Origin: Acidobacteriota bacterium
GTDB taxonomy: Bacteria > Acidobacteriota > Vicinamibacteria > Vicinamibacterales > UBA2999
NCBI GenBank assembly: GCA_046727855.1
Contig: JBKPDL010000068.1
Coordinates: 2,216-66,215, forward strand
Reading direction: 5' to 3'
Length of the DNA stretch: 64,000 nt
This document shows, piece after piece, positions 1 through 18,608 of the stretch. Position numbers and translations under genes: made by a program. The notes beneath the pieces were generated by a model. It ran no database searches and was not told where the DNA came from. It saw nothing but the letters and a program-made list of their open reading frames with translations. Every line of letters begins with the position of its first letter. Position 1 is the first letter of the stretch.

Positions 1-516
1 CATCAGGTAGTTCGTGAACTTCGGATACAGAATGATGAGCATGAATGTCAGGAACGCTCCGAAGGTCGCGGTGAGCGAGAAGGAGGTGGAGAGCAGCTTC
101 GTGAACTCGTACGCGAGCCGGTCGTATCGCGGATCTCCGGTCTTGTAGCCGATCACCTCGATGATGAACGCGAAAATTGGGACGGCAAGGACGAACGCCG
201 CAAACAGCAGGTGGAGCTCCGCGACCGCCCAGATTGCCACGCGGCTCCCGATGACCGGAAAGGTCCGGTACTCAGCTTCCGCGTACGGGGTTGCGCGGGC
301 CTTGCTCTCAGCGTCTGCCTTCTCGGCAGCCAGTCCCTCCGTGCGGGGCGTTGCTTCGACGGTCGCGGCAGGAACCCGGTAAGGCTCCCTGTACTCGCGG
401 CTCACCAGCTGCGAAGCCATCCACACGACCCCGGCGAACATCACCAGGACGGTGAAGGGACCGAGTAGGAACAACACCTTGCGGTTTATCGCGCCGTTCA
501 TCACGCCGTTCGTCAC
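1..516 (-). CDS. cytochrome bd-type quinol oxidase subunit I (CydA)-like membrane protein, N-terminal 172 codons only (gene runs off window start)
   Basis: Absent from the ORF track because it is open at position 1. Hand translation of the minus strand from GTG 516..514 is stop-free to position 1; GGAG lies at 521-524, and the GTG begins 10 nt after the stop of the preceding gene. Product: VTNGVMNGAINRKVLFLLGPFTVLVMFAGVVWMASQ...RVAIWAVAELHLLFAAFVLAVPIFAFIIEVIGYKTGDPRYDRLAYEFTKLLSTSFSLTATFGAFLTFMLIILYPKFTNYLM. The pattern H-x-LF, IxE, xG, Y, F-KL, F-L, G resembles the CydA N-terminus as I remember it (E. coli [54 protein letters not shown]). Family assignment is from memory, not a search. Confidence 0.55.
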   Translation of the reverse strand, partial: MTNGVMNGAINRKVLFLLGPFTVLVMFAGVVWMASQLVSREYREPYRVPAATVEATPRTEGLAAEKADAESKARATPYAEAEYRTFPVIGSRVAIWAVAELHLLFAAFVLAVPIFAFIIEVIGYKTGDPRYDRLAYEFTKLLSTSFSLTATFGAFLTFMLIILYPKFTNYLM

Positions 517-526
517 GGTGTCTCCC

Positions 527-1162
527 TCACTTGCTGCCCGCGGGCGCGTTTGTGGCGCTTGCCGGCCGCTTGCGCTCGAGCTCTCGCACGTAAGCGACGA
601 TCGCCCACCTGTCCGAAGGGGGGATCGCCCAGCGGTACGAGGACATCAACCCCATCCCGTTGGTAATGACGTCGAAAATCTGCCCGTCCGGGTACTTCAG
701 GATCTTCTCCTGGTGGAAGGTGGCGGTCGGGACGTTGCCTCGCTGGAACAGGATCCCCTTGCCGTCCCCACGAGGGTCGTGGCAAGGCTGACAATAGATC
801 ACGTAGCGCTGGCGGCCGCGCTCGAGAAGCGCTTCGTCTACGGGATGCGGGATCGCCGCGACGAACTGCCCGTCCGCCCCCTTTCCGGTGAAGAAGGCCG
901 TGTCTTCCTTCAGCCCCCCGATCGGGACCGTTCCGGGAACCGGCTCGCGCATGGACGCGCCGTTGTAGAAGAAATCGCTGGCCGTCTGCGGAAGGACCTT
1001 CGGCTGGTCGTCCATGCTCGGGTTGATATGGATGGGAGGACGGCTCGACGTGCAGCCGCGCGCGCAGCCGGTGAGGGCGAAAAGAGAGGCGAACGCGAGC
1101 GCGCCCAGTACGCGTCCACCGCCGCTAAAGCTTCGGCGGACAAGCCGTGTGCGGACGTTCAT
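527..1162 (-). CDS. lipoprotein-type mono-heme cytochrome c, paralog of ActE
   Basis: 211 aa with a single CxxCH (CQPCH) and a lipobox-like signal (ASLFALTGC). Aligns by eye with the ActE ORF at 11493..12137: RQRYVIYCQPCHDPRGDGKG vs QQRFNIYCSPCHGRLGDGNG; DVITNGMGLMSSY vs DVITNGFGAMQGY; DRWAIVAYVREL vs DRWLIAAYVRAL. Overlaps the upstream gene by 4 nt. Confidence 0.8.
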   Translation of the reverse strand: MNVRTRLVRRSFSGGGRVLGALAFASLFALTGCARGCTSSRPPIHINPSMDDQPKVLPQTASDFFYNGASMREPVPGTVPIGGLKEDTAFFTGKGADGQFVAAIPHPVDEALLERGRQRYVIYCQPCHDPRGDGKGILFQRGNVPTATFHQEKILKYPDGQIFDVITNGMGLMSSYRWAIPPSDRWAIVAYVRELERKRPASATNAPAGSK

Positions 1163-4100
1163 GAAACGGGCCTTTCTTCCTTCGTTCGGTGCCCGACTCC
1201 CGCGTTGGTCCGCGCGTCCTCGAGGTCCGGATTCGGGTTGCGCACCTTGGCCAGATAGGTCGTCCGGGGCCTGGTGTTCAGCTCGTCGAGTAGCGCGTAG
1301 TTACGCGCGTCGGCCTTGGCCTTCACGACCCGGCTCGACGCGTCTCGAAGATCTCCGAACTCGATAGCCGAGGCCGGGCAGGCCTGTTGGCAGGCCGTCT
1401 TGACGTCGCCGTCACGGAGCGCGCGCCCCGCGAGCTTCGCATCGATCTTCGCCCGATTGATCCTCTGCGTGCAGTAGGTGCACTTCTCCATGACGCCCCT
1501 CGCGCGGACCGTGACGTCCGGGTTCATCGCGAGTTTGAGGATGTCGGGCGTGTCCTTGGTGAAGTTGAAAAAATTGAACCGGCGAACCTTGTAGGGGCAG
1601 TTGTTCGAGCAGTAGCGGGTCCCGATGCACCGGTTATAGACCATCACGTTGAGGCCTTCCCTGTCGTGGACGGTCGCGGCCACGGGGCAGACCTGCTCGC
1701 AGGGAGCGTCCTCGCAGTGCATGCACGGAACCGGCTGGAAGACGACCTCCGGGTTGCCGGAAGGCTCGCCGCTAAAGTACCGGTCGACCCTGATCCAGTG
1801 CATCTCGCGCTGCTTCGCGACCTGGATCTTGCCGACAACCGGCACGTTGTTTTCGCTCTGGCACGCCGTCATGCACGCGTTGCAGCCGATGCAGGCGTTC
1901 AAGTCGATCGTCATTCCCCACTGGTGGCCCTGATCGTAGGTATGCTCCTTCCAAAGTGAGAAGTGATGCGGTTGCTCCTCGAAGACGCCGAGTGCGCCGG
2001 GGACTTTTCCGCCTTCCGGATGTTGTGGCGGATCGCCCTCATGAGCGCTCCCTGCTCGCTCCGCCCCGGCAGCCGAGTTCGATCGAAGCGCGGTCAGGGT
2101 CGACTCGCGCACGACGGGGCGTCCCTCCATGCTGCCGTGCTCCTGGGTCGCCGCGAGCGGGTAAGTGCGCGCGAGCTTGGTGAGGCTGACCCCGCTGTCG
2201 AAGCCAGGTGCTTTGGAGCTTCGGACCGTGAACGTATCGAACCCGACTCGCGAGCCGATCCGACCCGCGTGCGAACGGCCGTAGCCGAGTGTCAAGGCGA
2301 CCACGCCGTCCGTCATGCCGGGGAGGAGCCAAACGGGTAGCTCGAGCGAGCGGCCGGCATAGTCGAGGCGGACCCAATCCTCGTTCGCGAGGCCGAGCGA
2401 ATCGGCCGTCTTCGGGCTGACGAGCGCGGGGTTGTCCCAGGTCAGCTTGGTGAGGGGATCGGGAAGCTCCTGCAGCCACCCGTCGTTCGCGAAGCGGCCG
2501 TCGTGAACCGAGGGGGAGGGGAGGAAGACGACCTCCAGGCCACTGCGAGATTCACCAGCGGCTGCTCCTGAACCCGTTGCGCCCGCGCCGCCGCCAATCG
2601 AGCGCGCGAGCTCCGCCAGTGGCTGCACGGTGAGATTGGGGACAACTTCCGGAAGCTCGCTGCCGGAAAGCAATCCGTCATGCAGGACGCGGTTCCACTT
2701 CCTGTCGAAGTCCGCCTCGGCGAGGATCGGTTTCCAGGTCTCCCGGACGATGTCATAGCCGGGACGATCCTTGCTCCCGACCATCAGCCCCAGCACTTCA
2801 ACGGGGCTTCGTCCGCCGAACAGCGGAAGAATCAGCGGCTGGACGACGCTGAGCGTGCCTCCAACGGCGCGGGCGTCTCCCCACGACTCGAGATAGTGAG
2901 CGCGAGGGATATGCCACGTCGCCTTGGCGGATGTTTCGTCGACCGTGTGTGCGAGCGCGATCGACGTAGAGACCTTCGCCATGGCCGATGCGAAGTCGAG
3001 ATCGGCGGGGGCATCGAAGACAGGATTGCCTCCCAGGACGACGAGCGTCTTGATGGTTCCCGCATTCATCGCGGCGACGAGTGAAGCGAGCGAACTGAGG
3101 CTCGGAAGCGCCGCATCCTTCGCCTCGTAATAGCTGACCGTCTGCCCCGTGTTGCCGAGATGCGTGTTCAGCGCGCAGACGGCGGCGTGGACGGCCGCGG
3201 GCTGGCGGTCCCCAGCCACGATCAGACCCTTGCCGCGGTGCGCGAGGAGATCCTTGGCAACGGCGTCGATCCAGCGCGGGTCGACACCTGGGATGCTGGC
3301 TCCCGACGCGCTCGCAACGCCAGCTGCGGACGGAGCAAGGCGTGACGCAAGGGCCGCGAGAAGCGCCGCGATCTGCCGGCTCTCGAGACGGAGCCGATGA
3401 TCCGCCATGGCTCCCGTCAGCGAGTAAACCGCTTCGACAGCGTAGAGCCGGTTCATCGCGCCACCGGAAGCTCCCGCCTGCCTTCCGCTCGCGAACCCTC
3501 GCGCGTGACGGATCATCTCCGGGTCGGTGAGTAGCGGGTCGGCGTCGAGGCACAGAATCACCGAAGCTCGATCGACCCGGAGCATGAGATCGAGATCGCG
3601 TCCCGTGGCCTGCCGCAGTCCCGCGAGCCGGTTCTCGTCACTGACGGCGTCATACGTCGCCCACTGCAACCGTGGATAGCGGGCACGAAGCTCGGAGACC
3701 AGGCGTGCGAGGGTAGGCGAGGAGAAGGAATCTGAGAGAACCGCAAGGCCAGCGCCCCCATCCGCAGCATGAGCCTCGGACAGCTGCCCCCAGGCGGTCA
3801 CGAAATCGCTCCAGGCCTTCCGTTCCCCTTTCAGCATGACGGCTTGCGAGCGGTCGGGATCGTAGAGGCCGAGCACGGACGCCTGGACGCGCGAGCTGGA
3901 GGCTCCGAGGGTCGAGGGGTGCGAGGGGTTTCCCTCGATCTTGGTCGGTCGCCCTTCGTGACTCTCGACGATCAGTCCGTAAGCACTACGGCCGAACGGC
4001 ATCGTCGTGGCGTAGTAGCGGGGGATCCCGGGAACAATCTCCTCGGGTGCGGTGACGAAGGGGACAATCTCTTCGACTGGGCGCCGGCATGCCGCGAGCC

Positions 4101-4269
4101 CGGCAAGCGACAGCGAGGCGCCCACGAGCATCATCATGTCGCGCCGGGTGATCCCCTCGGGAAGCTCCGAGGCGCCCTCCGGGAATTCCCGCTCGAGAGA
4201 GGCGCGAAATTCGGGGCTTTGCTCGATCTGCGCGAGACTTCGCCAATAGTCCCGCGTCACCGGTGGCAC
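1159..4269 (-). CDS. ActB-like subunit (Tat-signal molybdopterin-oxidoreductase-like domain fused to a 4Fe-4S ferredoxin domain), second copy
   Basis: 1036 aa. Twin-arginine-like N-terminus ITRRDMMMLVGASLSLAGLAAC. C-terminal Cys clusters CIGCNACMTAC, CMHCEDAPCEQVCP, CIGTRYCSNNCP and CTYC. Collinear with the 14119..17658 ORF (shared HEGRPTKIEGNP and GRFANDGWLQELP). GTG start at 4269 overlaps the ActA-like gene by 13 nt. Confidence 0.85.
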   Translation of the reverse strand: MPPVTRDYWRSLAQIEQSPEFRASLEREFPEGASELPEGITRRDMMMLVGASLSLAGLAACRRPVEEIVPFVTAPEEIVPGIPRYYATTMPFGRSAYGLIVESHEGRPTKIEGNPSHPSTLGASSSRVQASVLGLYDPDRSQAVMLKGERKAWSDFVTAWGQLSEAHAADGGAGLAVLSDSFSSPTLARLVSELRARYPRLQWATYDAVSDENRLAGLRQATGRDLDLMLRVDRASVILCLDADPLLTDPEMIRHARGFASGRQAGASGGAMNRLYAVEAVYSLTGAMADHRLRLESRQIAALLAALASRLAPSAAGVASASGASIPGVDPRWIDAVAKDLLAHRGKGLIVAGDRQPAAVHAAVCALNTHLGNTGQTVSYYEAKDAALPSLSSLASLVAAMNAGTIKTLVVLGGNPVFDAPADLDFASAMAKVSTSIALAHTVDETSAKATWHIPRAHYLESWGDARAVGGTLSVVQPLILPLFGGRSPVEVLGLMVGSKDRPGYDIVRETWKPILAEADFDRKWNRVLHDGLLSGSELPEVVPNLTVQPLAELARSIGGGAGATGSGAAAGESRSGLEVVFLPSPSVHDGRFANDGWLQELPDPLTKLTWDNPALVSPKTADSLGLANEDWVRLDYAGRSLELPVWLLPGMTDGVVALTLGYGRSHAGRIGSRVGFDTFTVRSSKAPGFDSGVSLTKLARTYPLAATQEHGSMEGRPVVRESTLTALRSNSAAGAERAGSAHEGDPPQHPEGGKVPGALGVFEEQPHHFSLWKEHTYDQGHQWGMTIDLNACIGCNACMTACQSENNVPVVGKIQVAKQREMHWIRVDRYFSGEPSGNPEVVFQPVPCMHCEDAPCEQVCPVAATVHDREGLNVMVYNRCIGTRYCSNNCPYKVRRFNFFNFTKDTPDILKLAMNPDVTVRARGVMEKCTYCTQRINRAKIDAKLAGRALRDGDVKTACQQACPASAIEFGDLRDASSRVVKAKADARNYALLDELNTRPRTTYLAKVRNPNPDLEDARTNAGVGHRTKEERPVS

Positions 4270-4904
4270 CCCGAACAGTCAGTCGGCGGATTGACCGCAC
4301 GTTCGCGGTCGAGCTGCGCCGCGAGCGCTTGAACATCCCGCGGAGGCGTCCACCTCATGTTGGTGACTTCCGAGACGGGGCGTCTGTAGGGACCGGGGTT
4401 GCGGTGGCAGTCGAGGCACCAGCTCATGCTGAGCGGCGTCATCTGCGTAACCGTTTCCATCTCGTCGATGCGGCCGTGGCAGGTGACGCAGCCGATTCCT
4501 GCCGTCACGTGCACGCGGTGGGGGAAATAGGCATAGTCGGGAAGATTGTGGACGCGAATCCAGCGCATCGGGCGGCCGCTCTGGGCGCTGTCCCGAATCG
4601 GTGCGAGCAGCGCGCTGTCCCTCTTCACGGTCTGATGGCAGTTCATGCACGCCTGCGTGGGCGGAACGTTGGCGACGTTAGAAATCTCGACCGACACGTG
4701 ACAGTATCGGCAATCGAGACCGAGCTCGCCGGCGTGGAGCTTGTGGCTGTACGGTACCGGCTGAACGGGACGGTAGCCCACATCTGTGTACCACGGGGAA
4801 AAGTAGTACCAGACGCCCGCGATCGCGAGCGCCGGGCCGAGAGTGCCCGCAATGGCCGTCACGATCGGGAGTTTGTTCCACCAGGGGGGAAAAATTTGGG
4901 CCAA
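4257..4904 (-). CDS. ActA-like membrane-anchored pentaheme cytochrome c, second copy
   Basis: 215 aa with five CxxCH motifs (CRYCH, CMNCH, CVTCH, CLDCH, CSGCH) and an N-terminal TM helix. Paralog of 17673..18332 (AQIFPPWW vs SQIFPKG). The start codon is TTG at 4904..4902 with GGAG about 10 nt upstream. Confidence 0.85.
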   Translation of the reverse strand: MAQIFPPWWNKLPIVTAIAGTLGPALAIAGVWYYFSPWYTDVGYRPVQPVPYSHKLHAGELGLDCRYCHVSVEISNVANVPPTQACMNCHQTVKRDSALLAPIRDSAQSGRPMRWIRVHNLPDYAYFPHRVHVTAGIGCVTCHGRIDEMETVTQMTPLSMSWCLDCHRNPGPYRRPVSEVTNMRWTPPRDVQALAAQLDRERAVNPPTDCSGCHR

Positions 4905-5034
4905 CGGCTAGGGCTCCGGGGTGCTGGAGGACAGTTGCCCCGGCCCCGAGTCCGCCATGGAACTGTGATGCCGCATCCGCGCGTCCCCAAAGAATTCGTC
5001 GGAGAAACCGAAAAATCTGTCGATCGAGGCCGCG

Positions 5035-5064
5035 ATCTTATCCACGAACTAGGACAGGGGTCAA
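5035..5064 (-). promoter_or_regulatory. candidate sigma70-like promoter for the second ACIII-like module
   Basis: The minus strand reads TTGACC (plus 5059..5064), an 18-nt spacer, then TAAGAT (plus 5035..5040). It lies in the 218-nt gap between the oxidase subunit IV stop (5123) and the ActA-like start (4904). Motif match only. Confidence 0.3.
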
Positions 5065-5122
5065 GCGCGCCGCGCCGTGGTAGCTGACGTCATGGATGCC
5101 ATTGATCGCCTGCCGAAGCGAA

Positions 5123-5425
5123 CTACTGCAGGCGAGGCGGAACGGGCAGCCACCCGCGCGAGGCGTAATCCGCCATCGTCAATCCAAGCAGGATGAAGAG
5201 AAAGAAGAAGCCCGAGAGGATCACGAGTTTGGTGAGCCGGCTGCTGTACTTCACGTGCATGAAGTACAGAATCACGAGCGTGGCCTTGATCGACGCAATC
5301 CCAAGCGCCACGACCTTGTTCAACTCTCCGAGGTTCAGGTAGGCGACGAGCACCGTGATCGTCGTGAGGACCATCAGCGTGACGAAGACGAGAATGTACG
5401 ACTTGACGGAGGCGATGTGCGACAT
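5123..5425 (-). CDS. ctaF: cytochrome c oxidase subunit IV (prokaryotic CtaF/COX4_pro family)
   Basis: 100 aa with three hydrophobic helices and the motif ATLVILYFMHVKY. Sits directly after subunit III. Confidence 0.75.
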   Translation of the reverse strand: MSHIASVKSYILVFVTLMVLTTITVLVAYLNLGELNKVVALGIASIKATLVILYFMHVKYSSRLTKLVILSGFFFLFILLGLTMADYASRGWLPVPPRLQ

Positions 5426-5428
5426 GGC

Positions 5429-6275
5429 TCAGGATCGATCGATGAGATAGAGCAGCGGGAACAGATAAATCCACACGATGTCGACGAAGTGCCAGTAGAG
5501 GCCGCTCATCTCCACGGGCGTGTAGTAGTTGGCGTCGAACCTGCCGATCCACGCCATGAACGTGATCACGGTCAGCAGCGCGATGCCGACGATCATGTGG
5601 AGCGCGTGCAGCCCGGTCATCGTGAAGTACAGGCTGAAGAAGATCTGCGTGTGCTGCTGGAGCGCTGGATCGCGCTGTGCGGCAGTCGCCGCGTGCGTTG
5701 TGTGGGCTGGCGGCGCGGCGTGCTCGCCCGCGGACGCGCCGGACTCGACAGGCGCCACGCGTCCGGGCACCTCGCCTTCGGCACCCGCCGCGCCTGCCTC
5801 GTGCCCTGCGGCCGGTTCGGCCGCATGTGAATCCCACACGAAGTCCGGGCCCGGCACGTGATGATGCTCGAACTTGTCCGCGTACTCGATCACCTTGACG
5901 CCGAGGAACACCGACCCGAGGAACATCGTCGCGATCAGCCATGCGACGGTCGCTTTGCGACGATTGATCTGCGCCGAATGCACGGCCATGGCCATGGTCA
6001 GCGAACTGGCGATCAGCACCACCGTGTTGAACGCGCCCCAGAAGAGCACGATCGACGAGCTCGCGGCCACGAACGCGTCGTGATACCAGATGCGGTAGAG
6101 CATGTAGGCCATGAACAGTCCACCGAAGAACAGGATCTCGGTGACCAGGAAGGTCCACATGCCGAACGTGCTCGCCTCCTTTTGCTGCGACATCGACTCG
6201 AAGTGATGCTGCAGCGCGGGATGGTGCGCCGCGTGTGCGTGAACGTGACCGTGAGCGTCGGCTTGAACGACCGTG

Positions 6276-7901: not shown

Positions 7902-8944
7902 TACGGTTTCCTCGTCGTCGATGTTGCCGACGGCGTTGACGTCGGACCCGGGGCTCCGGGCGGCGTCGTCGCGCCGGGAGCAGCTGGCGTCGCTGGCACG
8001 GCTGGCGCGCTCGAGGCCCCCGGCGAAAGTGATTTGACGTGCTCGATCAGCGCAGCCAGGCCTTCTTCGCTGATGAGGCCCTGGAAGGTCGGCATCAGCG
8101 GTTGAAAGCCTTTGACGATCCTGGCTTGCGAATTCAGGATCGACTCACGCAGATACGCCTCGTTCACGACGGCGGATGAGCCATCCTGGAATTCCACCGG
8201 TTTGCCGTAGATGTCTTTGAGTGACGGACCGCGGCCCTGGCCTGAATCGAGATGGCAGCTGTTGCACGCAAGCTGCTGGAACAGCGCCGCTCCGCGCTGG
8301 GCCAGCGAGCCTTCGCCGCCGCCGGCGAGCCAGGACTGATACGCCGCCGGCTCCATCACCACGACCTGCCCGATCATTCGCGAGTGATTGGTGCCGCAGT
8401 ACTCGGCGCAGAAGATGTGATACGTGCCGGCTTTGTTCGCTTCGAACCATAGCGTGGTGTAGCGGCCGGGAATCACGTCCATCTTCTGGCGAAAGTTGGG
8501 AAAGTACAAGCTGTGGATCACGTCCTCGGACGTCATCGTGACCCTGACGGCACGGCCGAGCGGTACGTGCAGCTCGTTGATCTCGCGCTGGCCCTCGAGG
8601 TGCTGAAACTTCCACATCCACTGTTTGCCAGTGGCATACACCTGCAGCGCCTCTTCCGGATCCCGACGCAGATGGTAGTAAACCGAGGCGCCCCAGCCGA
8701 ACATCACCATGGTGATGATCGTCGGAATGACGCTCCACAGGAGCTCGAGAGCCAGGTTGCCTTCGATCCGCGCGCCGACCTCACCGTCGTGACGCCGGCG
8801 GTACTTGACGCCAAAAATGACCACGGCAACAGCCACGACCAGCGCAAAGAACGCCGAGACGGCGATCACAAAAAAATAGAGCGCGTCGACGTCAGACGCG
8901 AATGTCGATGCCTGCGTGGGAAAGAGGGTGAAACCAGTGTCCAT
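7901..8944 (-). CDS. ctaC: cytochrome c oxidase subunit II fused to a C-terminal cytochrome c domain (caa3-type)
   Basis: CuA motif [15 protein letters not shown] and heme c motif CNSCH, followed by a Pro/Ala/Thr-rich tail. I chose ATG 8944 ([13 protein letters not shown]), 4 nt after the SCO1 stop. The ORF-track start at 9007 would overlap SCO1 by 59 nt. Confidence 0.9.
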
Positions 8945-8948
8945 GTAC

Positions 8949-9791
8949 CTAAACCGGTCGTTCTTCGCGCTGCTCGCGGCTGAGTGCCACCAGGACGAAT
9001 CCGACAAGCGCCACGAGCGTTACGGCACCGCCGATCTGCACAGCCCGCATTGCCAGGAAACTGTACGACCCCGTCGAAGGGTCGTAGTGATAGCAGTAAA
9101 GCAGTAGCTTATCGACGGCGTTGCCGGTTCGTCCGGCTGACGATTCGATGAGCGCAAACTTCACGTCGCGCGGTGCGAACTCGATGCCGAAGAAATAGCG
9201 GGATAGACGGCCGTCGGGTGTCGTGACCACGATCCCGCTGGGATGCGCAAATTGCTGCGTCTTGTCGTCCCACGCGTAATGGAACCCGGCGGCGTCGGTC
9301 ACGCGGCGAATCGAGGCTTCTTCTCCAGTAAGAAAGTGCCACCCCGATTCCGAACCGGGCCGCTTATAACGATCGATGTGCGCTTTTTTCTTGCCTGCGG
9401 CGAGCGGCGGCAGCTCGCGTGGATCGAAGCTGATGACGACGACGTCGAAATCCTGGCCCACGGTCTCGGTGAGCACGGTCAACGCGCTCGTGAGGCCGTT
9501 GAGCACCTGCGTACAGAGCATCGGGCACTCGTAGTACGCGAAGGCGAGCACGACCGGTTTGGTCCCGAAATACTGTCCGAGCTGCACGCTACGGCCGTCC
9601 TCGTCCTTGAATGTTGCGTCGAGCGGCAGTCGTTCGTTCAGACGCTGATCGAAACGAACATCCTTGAGGATGCCGGGCATCTGGCTCGCCGGCATGCCTG
9701 GATCGGGGCGCACGCCGTGCGCGCCGTCCTGCGCGCGCGCGATGGTTGCGCACGTGAGCGCTACGATGACAACGATCGATCGAAACAGCAT
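8949..9791 (-). CDS. SCO1/SenC family copper chaperone (thioredoxin fold)
   Basis: 280 aa with signal peptide MLFRSIVVIVALTCATIARAQ and the SCO CxxxC motif (YYECPMLCTQVLNG). Positioned immediately upstream of the oxidase genes. Confidence 0.85.
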   Translation of the reverse strand: MLFRSIVVIVALTCATIARAQDGAHGVRPDPGMPASQMPGILKDVRFDQRLNERLPLDATFKDEDGRSVQLGQYFGTKPVVLAFAYYECPMLCTQVLNGLTSALTVLTETVGQDFDVVVISFDPRELPPLAAGKKKAHIDRYKRPGSESGWHFLTGEEASIRRVTDAAGFHYAWDDKTQQFAHPSGIVVTTPDGRLSRYFFGIEFAPRDVKFALIESSAGRTGNAVDKLLLYCYHYDPSTGSYSFLAMRAVQIGGAVTLVALVGFVLVALSREQREERPV

Positions 9792-9796
9792 TTCAC

Positions 9797-10270
9797 TTAC
9801 CGTGTAACAGCGACTCGTCCTGCGGAGCTGTCGAGGACAACCTGATTCACCCCTTGCGGCTGATCCGGACGGCTCCGCAGCTCCCCTCGCTGGATCAGCA
9901 GATTCATCGCATCTTCGACAGGAATGCGGACCGCTCCGGCGTTCTTATCCACCCAGCCATAGCCCGACAGCTTTTCCTGCTCGCTTTGACGCAGCAGATA
10001 AATGTCTTTGAACGGCTGAGGCTGCAGGTTCGGCGCCGGGGCCTCCTTCGCGGCGCCGGCGGCGAGCGGAAACACCCGCGCTGCCTCGTCCGCGCTGCGT
10101 GCGCGGTTCTCGAACAGCCAGAACGTGCCGTAGACGATGGCGCCCGAAATCAGCATGGCCACGGTCAGCCAGATCGCGAACTTCCACGCAATCGACGGCT
10201 CGATGTCCGTGTACTCACGATTGGCGTCCGGCGGCGTCGGCCCGTATTCAATTTCAAGATCGTGTTCCAT
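9797..10270 (-). CDS. hypothetical single-pass membrane protein between actF and sco1 (possible ACIII/oxidase accessory subunit)
   Basis: ATG at 10270..10268 gives 157 aa (MEHDLEIEYGPTPPD...). One TM helix, WKFAIWLTVAMLISGAIVYGTFWLF. The longer ORF-track form (to 10921) overlaps actF and is Arg-rich shadow sequence. No family recognised. Confidence 0.55.
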   Translation of the reverse strand: MEHDLEIEYGPTPPDANREYTDIEPSIAWKFAIWLTVAMLISGAIVYGTFWLFENRARSADEAARVFPLAAGAAKEAPAPNLQPQPFKDIYLLRQSEQEKLSGYGWVDKNAGAVRIPVEDAMNLLIQRGELRSRPDQPQGVNQVVLDSSAGRVAVTR

Positions 10271-10311: not shown

Positions 10312-11493
10312 TCAATGAACATGGTGATGAATCGCGTTCGCAAGCCCCGGATCGTTCAACGGCAGCAGCGGACGCGCGCGCAACTGAATCGCAAACAACG
10401 CCAGGAAGATGCCGCCAAGCGCAATCGGCAGCGCCACGTCGAGAAGGCTGACGCTGAACTCTTCGTGGAACTCGGGCGCGACGTACCAGAAGTAATCGAT
10501 GATGCGAATGAACACGAGCCACGCCGCGATCACGCGCAGCCGATTCACGTCGCGCTTGACGTCGCGTGACAACAGCAGCGCGTAGGGCACGGCGAAGTGA
10601 AGAAGAATGAGCGCCACGCCAAGCCATTCGTAGCCGTTGTGCATGCGCCTGACGTAGTGCGGGATTTCCTCGATCGTGTTCGCCGACCAGATGATGAGGA
10701 ACTGCGAGAACGACAGATAGGCCCACAACATCAGGAACGCAAACAGGAGCTTGCCGAGATCGTGGAGATGATGCCTGGTCACGACCGCGTCGAGCGGCGG
10801 ATACTGCGACAGCACGATCAACACGACAATCGCAAAGGCGAGCGCGGACAACCCTTGACCGACCAGAAACAGCAATCCCCAAATGGTCGAGAACCAGTGC
10901 GGGTTGAGCGACATCACCCAATCGACCATCGCGAACGTGAGGATGAGCCCATGCATCACCAGTCCGGCGCCGGAGAGCCGCGCCAGCTTGGAGACCAGAC
11001 GCGGGTCGCCGGTGCGATCCTGCTCGGCCGACCAGCGATTGAGCAGCAGCGCCATGCCCGACCAGATCAGCCAGTAGACAATCTGCCGGATGTAGAAAAA
11101 CGTCGGGTTCAGATACGCCGACTTCTCCCTGATGATCGGATCGTTGGCGGCTTCCGGCGTGCTCCAGTGATAGAGGTGGCCCATGCCGAACAGAATCGGG
11201 ACAAACAGCACGGCCATGAACGGAATCGTTCGCGTCGCCGCTTCCAGGGAGCGCCGGATGACCAGGCCCCAGGCGCCGCCGGTGAGGTGAATCACCATCA
11301 GAATGGCGAGACTCCCCAGCGACACACCGGCCCAGAAAATGTAGGCGACGAGATACGCTTCGAAGAAGCGATCGACCCCCGAAATCACGGACCCGAGAAT
11401 CGTGAGCACGACGCCGACGAGTGCGGCGCCCATTCCAAGCCGCTGCAGGCCGGACAGGTTCTCGGGCGGTTGAAAGGACTCACTCGTGGCCAT
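10312..11493 (-). CDS. actF: ACIII subunit ActF (NrfD-like polytopic membrane protein)
   Basis: 393 aa and very hydrophobic. It occupies the position after actE in the actABCDEF order. The start overlaps the actE stop (TAATG). Confidence 0.8.
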   Translation of the reverse strand: MATSESFQPPENLSGLQRLGMGAALVGVVLTILGSVISGVDRFFEAYLVAYIFWAGVSLGSLAILMVIHLTGGAWGLVIRRSLEAATRTIPFMAVLFVPILFGMGHLYHWSTPEAANDPIIREKSAYLNPTFFYIRQIVYWLIWSGMALLLNRWSAEQDRTGDPRLVSKLARLSGAGLVMHGLILTFAMVDWVMSLNPHWFSTIWGLLFLVGQGLSALAFAIVVLIVLSQYPPLDAVVTRHHLHDLGKLLFAFLMLWAYLSFSQFLIIWSANTIEEIPHYVRRMHNGYEWLGVALILLHFAVPYALLLSRDVKRDVNRLRVIAAWLVFIRIIDYFWYVAPEFHEEFSVSLLDVALPIALGGIFLALFAIQLRARPLLPLNDPGLANAIHHHVH

Positions 11494-12137
11494 TAGCGTT
11501 CCAATTCCCCGCGCTTATCCGCCGGGACGTCGTCGATCTTCGCGTTCTGACTGAGTTGCAGCGCGCGGACGTAGGCGGCAATCAGCCACCGATCGCGGAC
11601 CGGCACCTGCTCGGCATAACCCTGCATCGCACCAAACCCGTTGGTGATGACGTCGAAGAAATAGCCGATTCGTTCCTGGCGGAGTCGATCGTTGTGATAC
11701 GACGCGGCCTGGCGGAGCCCGCGCTGCACCACCATGCCGTTGCCGTCGCCGAGCCGTCCGTGGCAGGGCGAGCAGTAGATGTTGAAGCGCTGCTGTCCGC
11801 GCTTGAGATCGTCGTGCGTGATCGCCATCGGGATGGTGTCGACGACCTGGCCGTCGACCTTGCCCGTGTAGAGCGCTTCATCTGCGCGCAACCAGCCGCG
11901 CGCGACCGTGCCGGCCGGTGGAGTGCGCGATCCGCGGGCATCGGGGAAAAAGCTGTTTGCCTCGAACGGCTCGATGCGCGGCGCGTTGTGCATGTCCTGG
12001 CGGCAGCCCGCGAACAGGGCGATCAGCAGCAGCAACGCCAAGGCGCGGTCGACGCCGAGCCCCGCTCCCGCCGGTATGCGCGGAATCTCGGGAGTGGGGC
12101 CGGGCTTCAGCCCCGCCAACCTACGCAGGAACGTCAT
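11493..12137 (-). CDS. actE: ACIII subunit ActE (lipoprotein mono-heme cytochrome c)
   Basis: 214 aa with lipobox LFAGC and a single CSPCH. GGGGAG lies upstream of ATG 12137. Overlaps the actD end by 17 nt. Confidence 0.85.
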   Translation of the reverse strand: MTFLRRLAGLKPGPTPEIPRIPAGAGLGVDRALALLLLIALFAGCRQDMHNAPRIEPFEANSFFPDARGSRTPPAGTVARGWLRADEALYTGKVDGQVVDTIPMAITHDDLKRGQQRFNIYCSPCHGRLGDGNGMVVQRGLRQAASYHNDRLRQERIGYFFDVITNGFGAMQGYAEQVPVRDRWLIAAYVRALQLSQNAKIDDVPADKRGELER

Positions 12138-12690
12138 AGACTCCCCTTGCGCCGAGCCCGCGAAGGAACTCCGCGGTCAGTGACCGATCGAATCGCGGAT
12201 CGTCCGCCTCAATGACCAGGAAAAACTTGTCCGAGCTCGCCATCGAAAACCGCGGCACGTTGAACACCGGGTGATACGGCTGCGGCAGGCCGTTGGCGAT
12301 GATCATGAAAAACGTCGCCGTCAGCGCGGAGAACAGAATCGTCAGCTCGTACGACGGCACGACGAACGACGGCCAGCTCGCGAACGGGCGGCCGCCGATG
12401 TTCATCGGGTACTCGAGCACTGCGGCCCAGTACTGCAGCGCGAACCCGGTCGCCATGCCAGCGAGTCCGCCTATCAGCGTCGCCAGCGGCAGCCGCGTGC
12501 GCCTGATGTGGATGATCGTGTTGAGCTCCTCGACCGGCACCGGCGTGTACGCCTCGAACCGGGTGAAGCCCTCTGCCGCCGCCCGGCGCGCCGCATCCAC
12601 GCACGCCTGCGCGGTCTCGAACTCCGCCATCACCCCGTGAAGCGCGCCGTGTTCTACCAGCGCGCGTTCGATCCGTTCACCTTGGTCCAT
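12121..12690 (-). CDS. actD: ACIII subunit ActD (DUF3341-like, C-terminal TM helices)
   Basis: ATG 12690 is preceded by GAGG at 6 nt and begins 7 nt after the actC stop. The ORF-track GTG at 12714 would overlap actC. Sequence HGVMAEFETAQACVDAARRAAAEGFTRFEAYTPVPVEEL is typical for ActD as I recall it. Confidence 0.75.
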   Translation of the reverse strand: MDQGERIERALVEHGALHGVMAEFETAQACVDAARRAAAEGFTRFEAYTPVPVEELNTIIHIRRTRLPLATLIGGLAGMATGFALQYWAAVLEYPMNIGGRPFASWPSFVVPSYELTILFSALTATFFMIIANGLPQPYHPVFNVPRFSMASSDKFFLVIEADDPRFDRSLTAEFLRGLGARGVYDVPA

Positions 12691-12697
12691 GGCTACC

Positions 12698-14118
<1,421 letters not shown>

Positions 14119-14119
<1 letters not shown>

Positions 14120-17100
14120 CAGTGCTTCTCGCCTTCGCGCTGGTTCTCACTCGGGCCGTGCATCTCGACGGCATGGCCGCCGACCGCACCCGCCCACGGC
14201 AGCGCGGGATTCGGATTTCTCACCGCCGCCAGATACGTGGTCCGCGGCCGGGTATTGAGGTCTTCGAGCAGCGCGTAGTTGCGCTCGGTCCTTTTCAACT
14301 GCGTCACGCGGCTGTTCGGATCGAGCACGTTGCCGAACACGATGGCGTCGGTCGGACACACCGACTGGCACGCGGTGAGCACGTCGCCGTCGCGGATGTC
14401 GCGCTCTTCGCGCTTGGCCTGGATGCGCGCCGCGTTGATGCGCTGTACGCAGTAGGTGCACTTCTCCATCACGCCGCGGCTTCGCACCGTGACGTCGGGA
14501 TTGCGCTGTAACTGGAACGTGCTCGTATTCCAGTCCTGATACAGCAGGAAGTTGAAGCGCCGCACCTTGTACGGGCAGTTGTTCGAGCAATACCGCGTGC
14601 CGACGCAGCGGTTGTAGACCATGTCGTTGAGGCCTTCGTCGCTGTGTGTGGTGGCGGCAACCGGACAGACGACTTCGCACGGCGCGTTCTCACACTGCTG
14701 GCACGGCAGCGGCTGCCAATACGTGTCCGGGTTATCGAGATCGCCGGTGTAGTAGCGATCGACGCGGAGCCAGTGCATCTCGCGGTTTTTGCCCACCTGC
14801 TCCTTGCCGACGACAGGGATGTTGTTCTCGGCGACGCAGGCCACGACACATGCCCCGCAGCCGGTGCACGTGTTCATGTCGATGGCCATGCCCCACTGCG
14901 GGCTGTTGCTGTAGTCGTACGCAGGATAGAGCGACAGCAGTTTGCCGCCAGGAACGTGCGACATCTCCTGTGCAAACCGTGGATTCTCTTTGTACTCGGC
15001 GAGCGCGTTTGCGCGCACGATGTTGCGGCCTTCGATCGACCAGTGGTCCTGTGTCGTGACCAGACGGTAGTAGTCGCCGGTCTTGCTGACCTCCGCGGCG
15101 CCAAATGACGGTGACGGGCTCCCGCGCAACACGTACGCGTTGAACCCGGTCGCATTCCCGACTCGGCCGGCCCGCGTCCGTCCGTATCCAAGCGTAACGG
15201 TGATGGAATCCTGCGCGTGGCCCGGATTGATGAACACCGGAAGTCGCAGCCGTCGTCCTTCGTGGCGGACTTCGATGATGTCGCCGTTGGAGACATCGAG
15301 CCGTTCTGCCGTACCCGGTGCGATCTGCGCGGCGTTGTCCCACGTCAACTTGGTAACGGGCTTGGGCAGCTCCTGTAACCAGCCGTTGTTCGCAAAGCGG
15401 CCGTCGTAGACCGTCGGGTCGCGGCGGAAATTCACCTCAAAAGCAGGTGCGATCGGTCCGCCTCCGCCGCCCTGAGCTGCGAGCGGAAGCGGCGCGGTCC
15501 CGCCGGAGCTCGCCGGTGATGCATTGCGAGCGGAAGCGGATGCCGCTGGTGCGACAGTTGCGGAGGGGGCGGTCACTGCGGCCGGGGTCGCGATCGCGCG
15601 GGGCACCGCGAGTCCGACTTCGCGTTCCGATCCCGCACCACCCTGCGTGCCGGGCGCGACCGGCGCAACCGTGGCGGCGGAGAAGCCTGTTCCAGGGACG
15701 AATCCGTCGTGCAGCCACTTGCGCCACACGCGCTCGAACTGTGCGGCCGCGCGTTGCTCCGGCGTCATCGGCGGTGGGGCCACTTGCGCGGCAACCGTCG
15801 CGGCGACGTTCTGTTCCGAAGGTTGCGTGCCGCGCGCGCCGGTACCTGCCTGCGCGCCACTGCCAGCGGCCGGTGGGACCGATGGTGTTGCCTGCTGCGC
15901 GCCGGGCGTTGCTGGAGCGCCAGTCAGCGGAACAGACCGTTCACCCGGTGCCGCTTGCGTCTGCGCACCGGCAGCAGTTGCCGCACTGGCGCCCGCCGCG
16001 CCTGACGCGCTCGCAGCTGGTGCAGCTGTTGCACCGGCAGCCAGCGCGCCCTCGGGCGCGTTTGCCATCCAGTATTCCCGCACAACGTCGTAGCCGTTAC
16101 GTTCGGGACGATCCGAGAGTGTCGCAATCAGTTCGTGCGCCGACTTGCCGCCGTACATCGGTTGAATCAGCGGCTGCACGATCGTCACGGTTCCGTCGAA
16201 GCTGCGCGCGTCGCTCCACGCTTCGAGGTAATGCGCTGCGGGGACGTGCCAGTGGCATAGCGTCGCGGTTTCGTCGACGAACAACCCCGAGTGCATCCGC
16301 AGCGCAACCTTCGCCATCGCGTCGGCAAAGTTCAGATCGGCCGGCGCTGTGTATACCGGATTCGACTCGCCGACGATGAGCAGCATCTGCACGCGGCCGG
16401 CCTCCATGTCCGTGACCAGCTCGCGCAACGCGGCATGCTGCTCGGTCGGCACGATCTCCGCGGGCGGCTGATAGCGCACGGTCGCGCCGACATTCCCGAG
16501 CGCCTGATTCATGGCGTGCGCAAGCGCGTGCACGGCGGGCGGCTGCGCGTCGCCGGCAACGACCAGCGACGTGCCGCGATGCGCGGTGAGATCCGCGGTG
16601 ATCGCCTCGACGTACTGTTCAGCGCCGCCAGGCACCACACCTATCGCACCGATCGCACCTGTCGCACCGATCTTTGCGGCGATCGCGCGCGCGAAGCTCT
16701 CGATCTCGCTCGCCTTCATCGGCACGCGATGATCGGCGTTCGCGCCCGTTACCGTCGGCGTTGGCTCTACCGCGTACATGCGGTTCAAACGATCAGGACC
16801 GACGTCGACCCGGCGTCGCGACGCAAATTGACGCGAGTAATACAGATTGGCGCCGCCTTCCGACGCGAGGAAGTCGGCGTGCAGCGAAAGGATGACGTCC
16901 GCTTTCGTGAAGTCGTAGATCGCATGCAGGTATTGCCCCTGCGCGATGCGCGCGCCCGCGCGCGCGTTGTCACGCGTGACCGGCTCCCACTGAATCCACT
17001 TCGCGCCGGGATTGGCGGCCTGCACCTGCTGAATCTGCCGCGCCAGCGTCGGCGAGTTCACGGTCTCAGTAAGGATACGGAGACCCGCTCCCTGCACCGC

Positions 17101-17658
17101 CGACTGCGCCGAGAGTCCCGCGCGTACAGCCGCGATGAACGCACTCCACGGCCGGATCTCTCCGAGTTGTAGGATCGAGGGCGAACGATCGGGGTCGTAG
17201 AGCGTGAGGAGCGACGCCTGCGCGTAGAGATCCGTCGCACCAAGACTCGCGGGATGATCGGGATTGCCTTCGACCTTGGTTGGACGGCCTTCGTGACTTT
17301 CGACGAGCAGGCCCTGCACCTCGCCGCCGAGAGACATGGCAGTGGCGAAAAACAAGGGCCGTCCGGGAATCTCCTCTTCCGGCTGACGCACGTAGGGAAC
17401 GATCAACTCCCTGGGCTGCACGGTGCAGGCCGCGCCCACGCCGGCAAGCGCCAGCGACGCGCTCATCAACTTGAGAAAGCTGCGGCGTCCCACCGGGTCG
17501 AGCCACTCGGTGGCGTTTTGCGGGAACTCGCGATGCAGGTATTCCTGGAACTCCGGCGTTTCGGCGACCGCCTCGAGGCTTCTCCAATAGTGCTTGCCCG
17601 TTGCGCCGCGAAGGCGCGCGCGTAGCGCGCTCAGGTCTGGTGTTCCGGCGTTCTCCAT
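14119..17658 (-). CDS. actB: ACIII subunit ActB (molybdopterin-like domain plus FeS domain) with long Ala/Pro/Gly-rich linker insertions
   Basis: Tat-like GRRSFLKLMSASLALAGVGAC. Contains HEGRPTKVEGNP and FeS clusters CTGCGACVVAC, CQQCENAPCEVVCP and CVGTRYCSNNCP. I prefer ATG 17658 (MENAGTPDLS...) over the TTG at 17685 used by the ORF track. Confidence 0.9.
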
Positions 17659-17672
17659 GTACCCTTTAACCT

Positions 17673-18332
17673 TTACCGGTGACAAACGGAGCAGCTTGTC
17701 AAGTGCTCGATCGTCCCAATCTTGTAGTCCTTGACCAAACGCGCGCCGAGTTGCCGTTGATCTTCGGCGGGCCTGTACCCCATCGTCGTGATCTCCTCAC
17801 GCGGACGCAGATAGGGTGTCGGATCGCGATGGCAGTCGAGGCACCACTCCATCTGCAGCGAGGCCTGCTGCGTCATGAGCGGCATGCGATCGACACGGCC
17901 GTGGCAGGTTTCACAGCCCACGCCCTGCTTCACATGAATGCTGTGATTGAAGTACACGAAGTCGGGCAGATCGTGCACCCGCACCCATTGCAGCGGCTTG
18001 TCGTCGCGGAAACTGGCCCGCACCGGCTCGAGGTACGGGCTGGTCACCCAGATTTGCGAGTGGCAGTTGATGCACGTCTTGGTCGGTGGAATGCCAGCCG
18101 AGGGTGAGACCTCCACCGACGTGTGGCAATACCGGCAGTCGATGCCGATGCCGCCGACGTGATGCTGATGGGAAAACTGGACCGGTTGCTCGACGTTGGT
18201 ATGCGCGGCCGTGACGTAATCCGATCGCTGAATCACGAGCACCAGCCAGCCGAGGCCGAGTACCAAGAATCCAAGGCCAATGATGCTGGCGCGCGACCAC
18301 TGGTTCGCGCCTTTGGGGAAGATCTGCGACAT
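17673..18332 (-). CDS. actA: ACIII subunit ActA (membrane-anchored pentaheme cytochrome c)
   Basis: 219 aa with five CxxCH motifs (CRYCH, CINCH, CETCH, CLDCH, CSVCH) and an N-terminal TM helix. Confidence 0.9.
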   Translation of the reverse strand: MSQIFPKGANQWSRASIIGLGFLVLGLGWLVLVIQRSDYVTAAHTNVEQPVQFSHQHHVGGIGIDCRYCHTSVEVSPSAGIPPTKTCINCHSQIWVTSPYLEPVRASFRDDKPLQWVRVHDLPDFVYFNHSIHVKQGVGCETCHGRVDRMPLMTQQASLQMEWCLDCHRDPTPYLRPREEITTMGYRPAEDQRQLGARLVKDYKIGTIEHLTSCSVCHR

Positions 18333-18500
18333 GTCGTCGGTACACTCCGGCCGGGGTGGGGACCTAACCGGCGTGCGCGCACTCTAGTGCAAGGAAAACC
18401 GGAAAACTGTACCCGCTTTTTCTCGTCCTAGCCACCTTGTGAAATATTTCTCAAGCCCACTTCTATCACAGGGGGAGGGGACTCGTAAAGCGAAGCCCAT

Positions 18501-18537
18501 CCATATGGCGATTTGGTGATTTGGTGAGATGGCGAGG
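18501..18537 (-). repeat. CCAAATC-repeat plus palindrome element (weaker third copy), about 170 nt upstream of actA
   Basis: The minus strand reads CTCACCAAATCACCAAATCGCCATATGG. It has two tandem CCAAATC words followed by the 10-nt palindrome GCCATATGGC. This is the same syntax and the same orientation relative to the downstream gene as 25341..25407 and 31604..31662. Confidence 0.4.
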
Positions 18538-18546
18538 CGAGGTGCT

Positions 18547-18591
18547 GATGTGGCGATGTCGCGCCACATCACAACATCACATCGCCACATC
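18547..18591. terminator. nested inverted repeats downstream of the S9 peptidase gene (candidate terminator or REP-like structure)
   Basis: GATGTGGCG (18547-55) pairs with CGCCACATC (18562-70), giving a 9-bp stem and 6-nt loop. Alternatively, GATGTGGCGATGT (18547-59) is the exact reverse complement of ACATCGCCACATC (18579-91). GCGATGTCGCG and CGCGACATCGC form a further pair extending to about 18609. No U-tract is present. Confidence 0.4.
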
Positions 18592-18608
18592 AACAGGTCG
18601 CGACATCG

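Follow-up and report, generated by a model that had tools for sequence, protein, structure and literature searches.

A conserved Vicinamibacterales operon in which paralogues of ActA, ActB, and ActE precede an OR-N2-like CydA homologue

Introduction

The subunits ActC, ActF, and ActD define quinol oxidation and membrane anchoring in alternative complex III (ACIII). What kind of complex, then, is encoded by a locus in which paralogues of ActA, ActB, and ActE are followed, where ActC would be expected, by a gene of another family? Such a locus occupies positions 1-5064, minus strand, of the 64,000-nt stretch of acidobacterial DNA analysed here (the window; contig JBKPDL010000068.1), where four tightly packed genes, actA2, actB2, actE2, and a cydA-like open reading frame (ORF) cut by the window edge, lie behind a promoter-like site. 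The original prediction, made from the DNA letters, held that the fourth gene resembles CydA of cytochrome bd rather than the NrfD-type ActC, and that the four products might form a hybrid complex. We find that the fourth gene is CydA-like, not NrfD-like; that the locus is the 5′ half of a conserved operon of Vicinamibacterales (Acidobacteriota); and that the module is a complete periplasmic ACIII wire without the ACIII membrane arm. The features of the locus are as follows.

5035..5064, minus strand: sigma-70-like promoter of the actA2 operon, TTGACC-N18-TAAGAT (scan and 8-locus alignment)
4905..5034, minus strand: 5′ leader of ~130 nt, from the -10 hexamer to the actA2 start (8-locus alignment)
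4257..4904, minus strand: actA2, pentahaem cytochrome c with an N-terminal transmembrane (TM) anchor, ACIII ActA paralogue
1159..4269, minus strand: actB2, Tat-exported protein in which a molybdopterin-like domain is fused to a four-cluster Fe-S domain, ACIII ActB paralogue
527..1162, minus strand: actE2, lipoprotein monohaem cytochrome c, ACIII ActE paralogue
1..516, minus strand: cydA-like, first 172 amino acids (aa) of a putative OR-N2-type membrane protein that continues past the window (extra TM helix, periplasmic linker, and CydA helices 1-2 with H102)

The fourth gene is CydA-like

The cydA-like ORF begins with a GTG at 516, preceded by a GGGAG ribosome-binding site, and runs for 172 aa to the window edge. 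This fragment scores 36.9 bits against Pfam Cyt_bd_oxida_I (PF01654; curated cut-off 26.2), residues 91-170 matching profile positions 2-81. The full-length protein was inferred from orthologous loci, with L001, 90% identical to the window fragment, as reference; the L001 orthologue has 644 aa and scores 83.8 bits against PF01654, residues 91-327 matching positions 2-239 of the 418 in the profile. A search of PDB sequences returned CydA chains only, aligned over the N-terminal half only, with E down to 3e-14; in an AlphaFold2 (AF2) model (pLDDT 78.6, pTM 0.80) an anchor helix at the N-terminus and a linker of poor order precede 14 long helices; and CydA accounts for all of the top 10 Foldseek matches of this model in the PDB (E from 2e-8 to 3e-5). 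The C-terminal 314 aa have no Pfam match even at E ≤ 10, and hhalign comparison of the protein with ActC or ActF gives a probability of at most 0.3%, against 97.4% for the control comparison of ActC with ActF. The predicted CydA identity thus holds for the full-length orthologue as well as for the fragment. That the C-terminal half is a hidden NrfD/ActC domain was considered and rejected on the evidence of Pfam, of hhalign, and of the Foldseek matches, which include no NrfD, PsrC, or ActC.

An extra N-terminal TM helix (approximately residues 12-39) followed by a charged periplasmic linker had been predicted ahead of the CydA-like region; both are present, but the linker is ~50 aa long rather than ~70. 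A total length of ~220 aa, as many database matches implied, was also considered and rejected, since those matches carry out-of-frame tails and intact orthologues are 615-660 aa. Many database entries (P0010, P0031, P0036, P0066, P0084, and P0109 among them) are 200-300 aa long with out-of-frame C-terminal tails, and are apparently frameshifted gene calls.

Canonical quinol-oxidising cytochrome bd (qOR, CydAB) is recognised by a periplasmic Q-loop that carries quinol-binding residues and by a CydB or CydA′ partner, and neither could be found here. Judged by region there is no Q-loop: the Pfam match stops at profile position 239 of 418, the PDB alignments are confined to the N-terminal half, and the model has extra helices. 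Nor is there a cydB-like gene in the cluster, whether in L001 or in the related genome loci. The proposal that the bd-like subunit supplies the quinol chemistry is accordingly doubtful, since the Q-loop region is gone and extra TM helices stand in its place. Intact database entries are routinely auto-named "cytochrome bd ubiquinol oxidase subunit I" though the quinol-binding loop is absent, a label that is probably wrong as to substrate.

The haem ligands, by contrast, are retained. H102 (motif AELHLLF), which falls within the window fragment, aligns with His19 of the E. coli and Geobacillus CydA proteins; among 10 relatives with identities as low as 44%, H102, H208, H263, M424, and S557 do not vary, and E189 and W563 hardly do. 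Both the O2-site haem ligand (His19 equivalent) and the His/Met pair of haem b558 (His263/Met424) are therefore kept.

The CydA-like protein and its downstream partners resemble OR-N2

Murali, Gennis & Hemp (2021) split the Q-loop-less CydA homologues into OR-C and OR-N1 to OR-N5, and their Table S6 gives for OR-N2 14 helices and the residues H99, Y183, E190, Y197, Y199, H213, H269, M430/N434, S563, and W569. The residues of orthologue P0121 are H102, Y182, E189, Y196, Y198, H208, H263, M424/N428, S557, and W563, with a spacing that matches the OR-N2 row; H102 alone of these signature residues falls in the window, the rest being read in P0121. The 14 long helices that follow the anchor helix in the AF2 model agree with the ~14 TM helices of OR-N2, and relatives at 39-46% identity are labelled Nitrospira, Manganitrophaceae, and Nitrospinae.

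Beyond the window, the gene order continues in L001 with two monohaem cytochromes c, the first of 207 aa and the second of 272 aa and with three TM helices. Next comes a protein of ~564 aa that combines two c-haem motifs, an EB_dh domain (EbdC-like haem b), and a TM helix at its C-terminus, and then a 686-aa Usp/PCP_red protein. The published OR-N2 operon consists of a cytochrome c, a second cytochrome c, and a dihaem c fused to an EB_dh domain (Murali et al. 2021), and the same combination of several cytochromes c with an EbdC homologue is found in L001 and kept in loci at 54-100% identity. Signature residues and gene context together indicate that the CydA-like protein is probably of the OR-N2 type.

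The gene order is conserved, and the Act paralogues are the addition

A genome scan yielded 80 species-level loci (L001-L080), nearly all labelled Vicinamibacterales, Vicinamibacteria, or Acidobacteriota, and a metagenome scan with a 10-sequence family alignment yielded 80 further loci at 54-89% identity. By tblastn, ~76 of the 80 species-level genome loci have the order actA2, actB2, actE2, cydA-like, cytochrome c, cytochrome c, dihaem c-EbdC, and Usp; the order is also kept in metagenome loci in which ActB2 is down to 55% and the CydA-like protein down to 67% identity. None of those genome loci has an ActC, ActD, or ActF match between actA2 and the Usp/PCP_red gene, and no actC, actD, or actF follows the cydA-like gene in ~100 related loci that carry Act paralogues. 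Of the two findings that would have refuted the original prediction, a fourth gene of the NrfD/ActC type and actC, actD, and actF directly behind it, neither was obtained. That these genes might lie just past the window edge was thus a candidate explanation that L001 and ~100 other loci reject.

The original prediction started from ACIII, with a CydA-like subunit in the place of ActC. The comparison reverses this view: the OR-N2 four-gene cluster is the core, and ActA2B2E2 is the addition. The core (CydA-like, c, c, and dihaem c-EbdC) is present in every metagenome locus whose contig is long enough, and also in L166. ActA2B2E2 is restricted to loci whose CydA-like protein has at least ~67% identity, and is patchy even there, being absent from L076, L079, L088, L090, L091, L093/L094, L099, L105, L120, and L126, as well as from all more distant loci with enough flank; among the scorable loci ActE2 is adjacent in 100 of 118 and not in the other 18. 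ActA2B2E2 belongs to a Vicinamibacterales-centred clade and, since the core cluster is known without Act genes in many lineages, is accessory. Where it is missing, no other electron-input module occupies the upstream slot, which holds unrelated genes only (FtsH, HtrA, DnaJ, PQQ dehydrogenase, cox); in several such loci (L076, L091, L093) the OR-N2 cluster directly follows ACIII-caa3.

ActA2, ActB2, and ActE2 form a complete periplasmic set

The three Act paralogues are as first described: five CxxCH motifs in ActA2, a Tat signal and Fe-S clusters in ActB2, and a lipobox and one CxxCH in ActE2. ActA2 (215 aa, TTG start) has a single TM helix (residues 14-32), matches the Cytochrome_C7 and c3 families of Pfam, and is 43% identical to the canonical ActA encoded elsewhere in the window (E=8e-67). 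ActB2 (1036 aa) carries the twin-arginine motif TRRDMM. Its model matches are to TIGR04519 (TAT-variant molybdopterin oxidoreductase) and to QrcB/QrcC-like models; against ActB from solved ACIII structures (chains 6f0k_B and 8k9e_B) it reaches 977-985 bits, its identity to the canonical ActB of the window is 44%, and it keeps all 15 Cys for one [3Fe-4S] and three [4Fe-4S] clusters. ActE2 (211 aa) has the lipobox LTGC (Cys33), a single CxxCH (CQPCH), and a Pfam match to Cytochrome_CBB3, and is 42% identical to the canonical ActE (E=3e-43). The window copies of these three genes contain no frameshifts or stops. Of the subunits by which ACIII is recognised, ActA, ActB, and ActE are therefore present at the module, while the NrfD-type ActC and ActF, and ActD, are missing.

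The canonical complex lies further upstream, as predicted. Next to the locus stands a caa3 oxidase set (SCO1, CoxII-c, CoxI, CoxIII, CoxIV), and past it a complete ACIII (ActA, ActB, ActC, ActD, ActE, and ActF) at 10312..18332, whose ActC, ActD, and ActF are encoded at 10312..14119, apart from the actA2 module, and whose ActC (12698..14119) is NrfD-type (77 bits against the NrfD Pfam model). Two details of these canonical genes deserve mention. The longest ORF over actC (12693-14189, 498 aa, GTG start) is in the wrong frame, being Arg/Ser-rich and free of TM helices, and the real NrfD-type ActC is the 473-aa ATG ORF at 12698..14119. Canonical ActB (14119-17685) has 1188 aa, as compared with 1036 aa for ActB2 and 1029-1039 aa for the solved ActBs, and contains a ~100-aa insertion near residues 540-645; by bit score the Rhodothermus ActB is nearer to ActB2 than to the canonical copy (977 vs 885).

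The locus has its own predicted promoter and a conserved leader

A 218-nt gap separates the coxIV ORF (5123..5425) from the actA2 start at 4904, as had been reported together with the promoter-like site. TTGACC-N18-TAAGAT at 5064..5035 is the sole promoter-like match in 4700-5500, where shuffled sequences lead one to expect 0.2, and it is kept in 8 of 8 related loci, with TTGACC invariant and the -10 hexamer nearly so. In the 8-locus alignment conservation starts sharply at the -35 hexamer, whichever gene is upstream, and the leader shows long invariant blocks and contains a TGTG-N4-CACA inverted repeat. Downstream, actA2 and actB2 overlap by 13 nt, actB2 and actE2 overlap by 4 nt, and a gap of 10 nt separates actE2 from the cydA-like ORF. 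Given their own conserved promoter and leader and these tight junctions, the four genes head their own transcription unit, and actA2B2E2 and the OR-N2 cluster are apparently co-transcribed.

The promoter and leader block (4905-5064 in the window, 5405-5654 in L001, and equivalents elsewhere) is sharply bounded and nearly invariant in the 8 loci. No Rfam family matches the leader at E ≤ 1, and its consensus fold has essentially no covariation support; a known riboswitch or small RNA was for these reasons rejected. The block could be a regulator-binding region or a new RNA element.

The linker of the CydA-like protein co-varies with the Act module

The extra helix is joined to helix 1 of CydA by the ~50-aa periplasmic linker. 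Where ActA2B2E2 is present, the linker contains the motif REY(K/R)EPYR...TPR.EG; where ActA2B2E2 is missing, it is degenerate. In relaxed form, as EY..P.R...TPR, the motif was found in 91 of the 100 loci with ActA2B2E2 and in none of the 18 without; it was defined post hoc, after inspection of the data, and the loci are phylogenetically non-independent. The remaining 9 of the 100 show SPR, APR, or VPR as variants, or else have an N-terminus that is truncated or frameshifted. When loci are matched for core identity to L001 (91.1% with and 92.2% without ActA2B2E2), linker identity is 64.4% with and 37.8% without. The linker resembles the docking element that might be expected for an Act module, and the co-variation is suggestive.

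Discussion

How might such a module work? The sole polytopic membrane protein of the module is a Q-loop-less CydA homologue with its haem ligands intact, and its partners are c-type cytochromes and an EbdC-like haem b. We propose that i) the OR-N2 ("TO_1"-type) core is a putative O2 reductase, devoid of a quinol site and presumably fed by c-type cytochromes; ii) the ACIII-derived haem/Fe-S wire (ActA2, ActB2, and ActE2) has been placed ahead of this core, without an NrfD-type subunit (ActC, ActF) or ActD; iii) the wire would be physically bound to the bd-like complex, perhaps via the periplasmic N-terminal linker of the CydA-like protein; iv) ActB2 may touch the EbdC-like haem b with its [3Fe-4S] end, by analogy with the beta and gamma subunits of ethylbenzene dehydrogenase-type enzymes; and v) electrons would pass from periplasmic donors through the wire to haem b558 (His263/Met424), and then to the O2-reducing haem site (His102). 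Synteny across considerable divergence (ActB2 to 55%), the tight junctions, the shared promoter, and the co-variation of the linker all argue for coupling; physical association, the direction of electron flow, and O2 reduction are inferred. We put the chances about even that ActA2, ActB2, and ActE2 bind to the OR-N2 complex and deliver electrons to haem b558 and, through it, to the O2-reducing site. A more tentative suggestion, and one against which we lean slightly, is that these three proteins, the OR-N2 CydA-like protein, and the cytochrome c and EbdC partners of the latter make up a single stable complex. The hybrid complex of the original prediction is in this sense plausible, with conserved synteny and linker co-variation in its favor, and we offer it as a proposal.

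Several points weigh against attachment of the wire to the OR-N2 core. The core stands without ActA2B2E2 in many lineages, including the close relatives L076, L088, L090, L091, L093, L099, and L105, and the wire is thus dispensable. The equivalents of E99 and E445 are Tyr and Ser, as in OR-N2, so that the canonical three-haem active site of cytochrome bd is not assured. With neither an NrfD subunit nor a Q-loop, no quinol site and no electron source for the wire can be named. Since ActB2 has a [3Fe-4S] cluster and is highly similar to ActBs that dock on ActC, assembly with an ActC from elsewhere would also fit. The linker motif was, as noted, recognised after the fact. And activity, cofactors, and subunit composition are putative for every OR-N enzyme.

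The alternative that survives best takes up the point about ActB2: ActA2, ActB2, and ActE2 would assemble on the ActC, ActD, and ActF of the canonical ACIII operon, creating a second ACIII isoform whose ActE2 feeds quinol-derived electrons to the OR-N2 oxidase as ActE does to caa3. ActB2 is complete, at 977-985 bits to the solved ActBs, with all Fe-S ligands including those of the [3Fe-4S] cluster that faces the ActC quinol site; the OR-N2 protein has no recognisable quinol site, so that a quinol-oxidising partner is needed somewhere; and the operon has ACIII and/or caa3 genes as its immediate upstream neighbors in the window, as it does in ~17 of 76 related genomes, quite apart from the relatives mentioned above (L076, L091, L093) in which an OR-N2 cluster without ActA2B2E2 directly follows ACIII-caa3. 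We nevertheless consider a second isoform unlikely, because most genomes have no ACIII genes within 10 kb; because 42-44% identity to the canonical subunits is about as far as that between ACIIIs of different phyla, and the ActC interface need not persist over such a distance; because the linker would not be predicted to co-vary with ActA2B2E2; and because ActD too is missing from the module.

Quite improbable, in our judgment, is a role for the CydA-like protein as a haem-b membrane anchor with a new quinone site, replacing ActC rather than reducing O2, so that the module would be a quinol:cytochrome c oxidoreductase or work in reverse. Its gene does sit at the actC position, and the haem b558 ligands His263 and Met424 are kept while the di-haem site lacks two of its residues, the equivalents of E99 and E445; a role of this kind was considered by Lücker et al. 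(2013) for 14-TM bd-like proteins, which have relatives in strictly anaerobic anammox bacteria. But the His19 equivalent, the E107 equivalent, and the four-helix core of the O2 site are conserved across the family, no quinol-binding residues can be identified, the same core cluster without Act genes adjoins haem-copper oxidase genes in aerobic-type contexts, and Murali et al. and later authors regard OR-N proteins as putative O2 reductases.

That the adjacency is merely genomic, ActA2B2E2 being either an independent unit of electron transfer in the periplasm or what is left of a decaying ACIII, and sharing a transcript with the OR-N2 cluster by chance, would accord with the lack of visible change in the OR-N2 core of close relatives without ActA2B2E2, but is very improbable given haem and Fe-S ligands that are all intact in orthologues diverged to 55% identity, conserved gene order, tight junctions, and promoter, a linker that co-varies with the presence of the module, and a window copy free of frameshifts and stops.

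Other settings of the CydA-like family and neighboring genes

The CydA-like protein is a hub that has been joined to different electron-transfer modules by lineage, and ActA2B2E2 is one such addition. Members of the same family also occur with cytochrome c and EbdC only; another relative is accompanied by two MrpD-like genes, multihaem and EbdC proteins, and a cytochrome b, which is the "TO_2" layout of Manganitrophus. A cluster that matches TO_2 is found at 6851-18424 of L164, a hydrothermal-vent metagenome contig (UOGE01000106; product label MNBD_NITROSPINAE02). It encodes two cytochromes c, a CydA-like protein fused to cytochrome c, a pair of MrpD-like antiporter subunits, a multihaem-c/EB_dh protein, and, besides these, a dihaem c and a cytochrome b; the paper on Manganitrophaceae describes the TO_2 layout as not found outside that family. 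A further context, that of a relative alone directly after a NuoF-like gene (Complex1_51K/NADH_4Fe-4S), is seen for P0388 and in L161-L163, all labelled Manganitrophaceae/Nitrospira. In L161-L163 the gene at 8001-9914 encodes a 637-aa relative (39% identity), with no cytochrome c or EbdC genes nearby; the setting of P0388 gave no hint of the ancestry of the cluster.

In distant OR-N2 clades (54-69% identity) a haem-copper oxidase set adjoins the OR-N2 cluster, ~3-5 kb downstream of the cydA-like gene in L137, L140, L144, L145, and L160, and upstream of it in L128 (5029-9839). The CoxI-like genes of these sets are 35-41% identical to the CoxI of the window, and their recurrence hints at a pairing of OR-N2 with haem-copper oxidases.

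The 686-aa protein encoded at the end of the conserved order (15067-17127 in L001, and at the same place in most of L001-L080) has two Usp and two PCP_red domains, the latter being the C-terminal domain of protochlorophyllide reductase. With 80-95% identity it is better conserved than the redox subunits. Past it in L001 are a GNAT acetyltransferase, then an Mrp/NUBPL-type Fe-S carrier ATPase (18340-19248) and a small PCP_red protein (19245-19712). The Usp/PCP_red protein and the genes after it may be regulators or assembly factors.

Comparison with known systems

Vicinamibacterales are abundant soil bacteria. In Nitrospirota and Nitrospinota that oxidise nitrite or manganese, the OR-N bd-like oxidases are presumed to be the chief terminal oxidases, and none has been purified. 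In the present operon this core enzyme comes with a fixed set of three ACIII subunits that are well understood and of solved structure. If all of these do form one complex, it would show how a Q-loop-less bd-type protein gets its electrons; it would show that an ActAB-type haem/Fe-S module can be used without an NrfD subunit, held to be its obligatory partner; and it would correct a widespread auto-annotation as quinol oxidases. If the complex is also stable, it would be the first module of the complex iron-sulphur molybdoenzyme (CISM)/ACIII type, combining Fe-S and multihaem subunits, on an anchor of the cytochrome bd fold rather than the NrfD type, a new class of respiratory supercomplex, and one in which the biochemistry of OR-N becomes tractable in heterotrophic soil bacteria. 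The wider lesson concerns the modular evolution of respiratory chains, in which a single CydA-like hub has taken as its partners cytochrome c and EbdC, MrpD and cytochrome b, a complete ACIII, or nothing but ActABE.

A literature search that covered few subscription journals found no ActA-ActB-ActE without ActC joined to OR-N2, and the operon is apparently a conserved and undescribed variant of a known but biochemically uncharacterised system. That system is the OR-N2 of Murali, Gennis & Hemp (2021), to which the NIDE0901-like bd-like oxidase from Nitrospira and the Ca. Manganitrophus cluster "TO_1" correspond. The protein described here resembles OR-N2 in being a 14-TM CydA-like protein with an N-terminal extension; in its H19, H186, and M393 equivalents and its Y/E/Y/Y/H/S/W signature; in lacking a Q-loop and CydB; and in having an operon with two cytochromes c and an EbdC-like periplasmic haem-b subunit. 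It departs from the published descriptions of OR-N2 and TO_1 in that paralogues of ActA, ActB, and ActE precede the cluster; that the host is a heterotrophic soil acidobacterium, not a nitrite or manganese oxidiser like Nitrospira or Manganitrophus; and that the EbdC-like domain is fused to a dihaem c (a fusion that does figure in the operon of Murali et al.).

ACIII itself is represented by its solved structures from Rhodothermus marinus (6F0K), Flavobacterium johnsoniae (6BTM), and Roseiflexus (6LOD). The module shares with it a pentahaem ActA, an ActB with one [3Fe-4S] and three [4Fe-4S] clusters, and a lipoprotein monohaem ActE, all with orthologue-grade similarity, and differs in having neither NrfD-type ActC and ActF nor ActD. 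The molybdopterin-like domain of ACIII ActB is regarded as cofactor-less. Type II enzymes of the DMSO (dimethyl sulphoxide) reductase family, such as ethylbenzene dehydrogenase and nitrite oxidoreductase (NXR), offer a possible analogy, as a four-cluster Fe-S subunit ending in [3Fe-4S] there leads to an EbdC-type haem-b subunit; ActB2, with its fused alpha-like and beta-like domains, and an EbdC-like domain are encoded in one operon here, and contact between them would be hypothetical.

What canonical CydAB (qOR1-3) shares with the CydA-like protein is the N-terminal four-helix core, in its fold and in its haem-ligand His; the absence of Q-loop and CydB, the extra TM helices, the replacement of E99 and E445, and the restriction of similarity to the N-terminal half set the two apart. 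A precedent for the arrangement as a whole comes from Nitrospirales, in which the ACIII genes actAB1B2CDE are followed by OR-N5 CydAA′, and from "TO_3" of Ca. Manganitrophus. There as here, ACIII-type genes are directly linked to the gene of a Q-loop-less bd-like oxidase; but in those clusters actC and actD are retained and the oxidase consists of two 10-TM subunits, OR-N5a/b, whereas the Vicinamibacterales operon has neither actC nor actD, a fused ActB, and a single 14-TM OR-N2-like subunit with cytochrome c and EbdC partners of its own.

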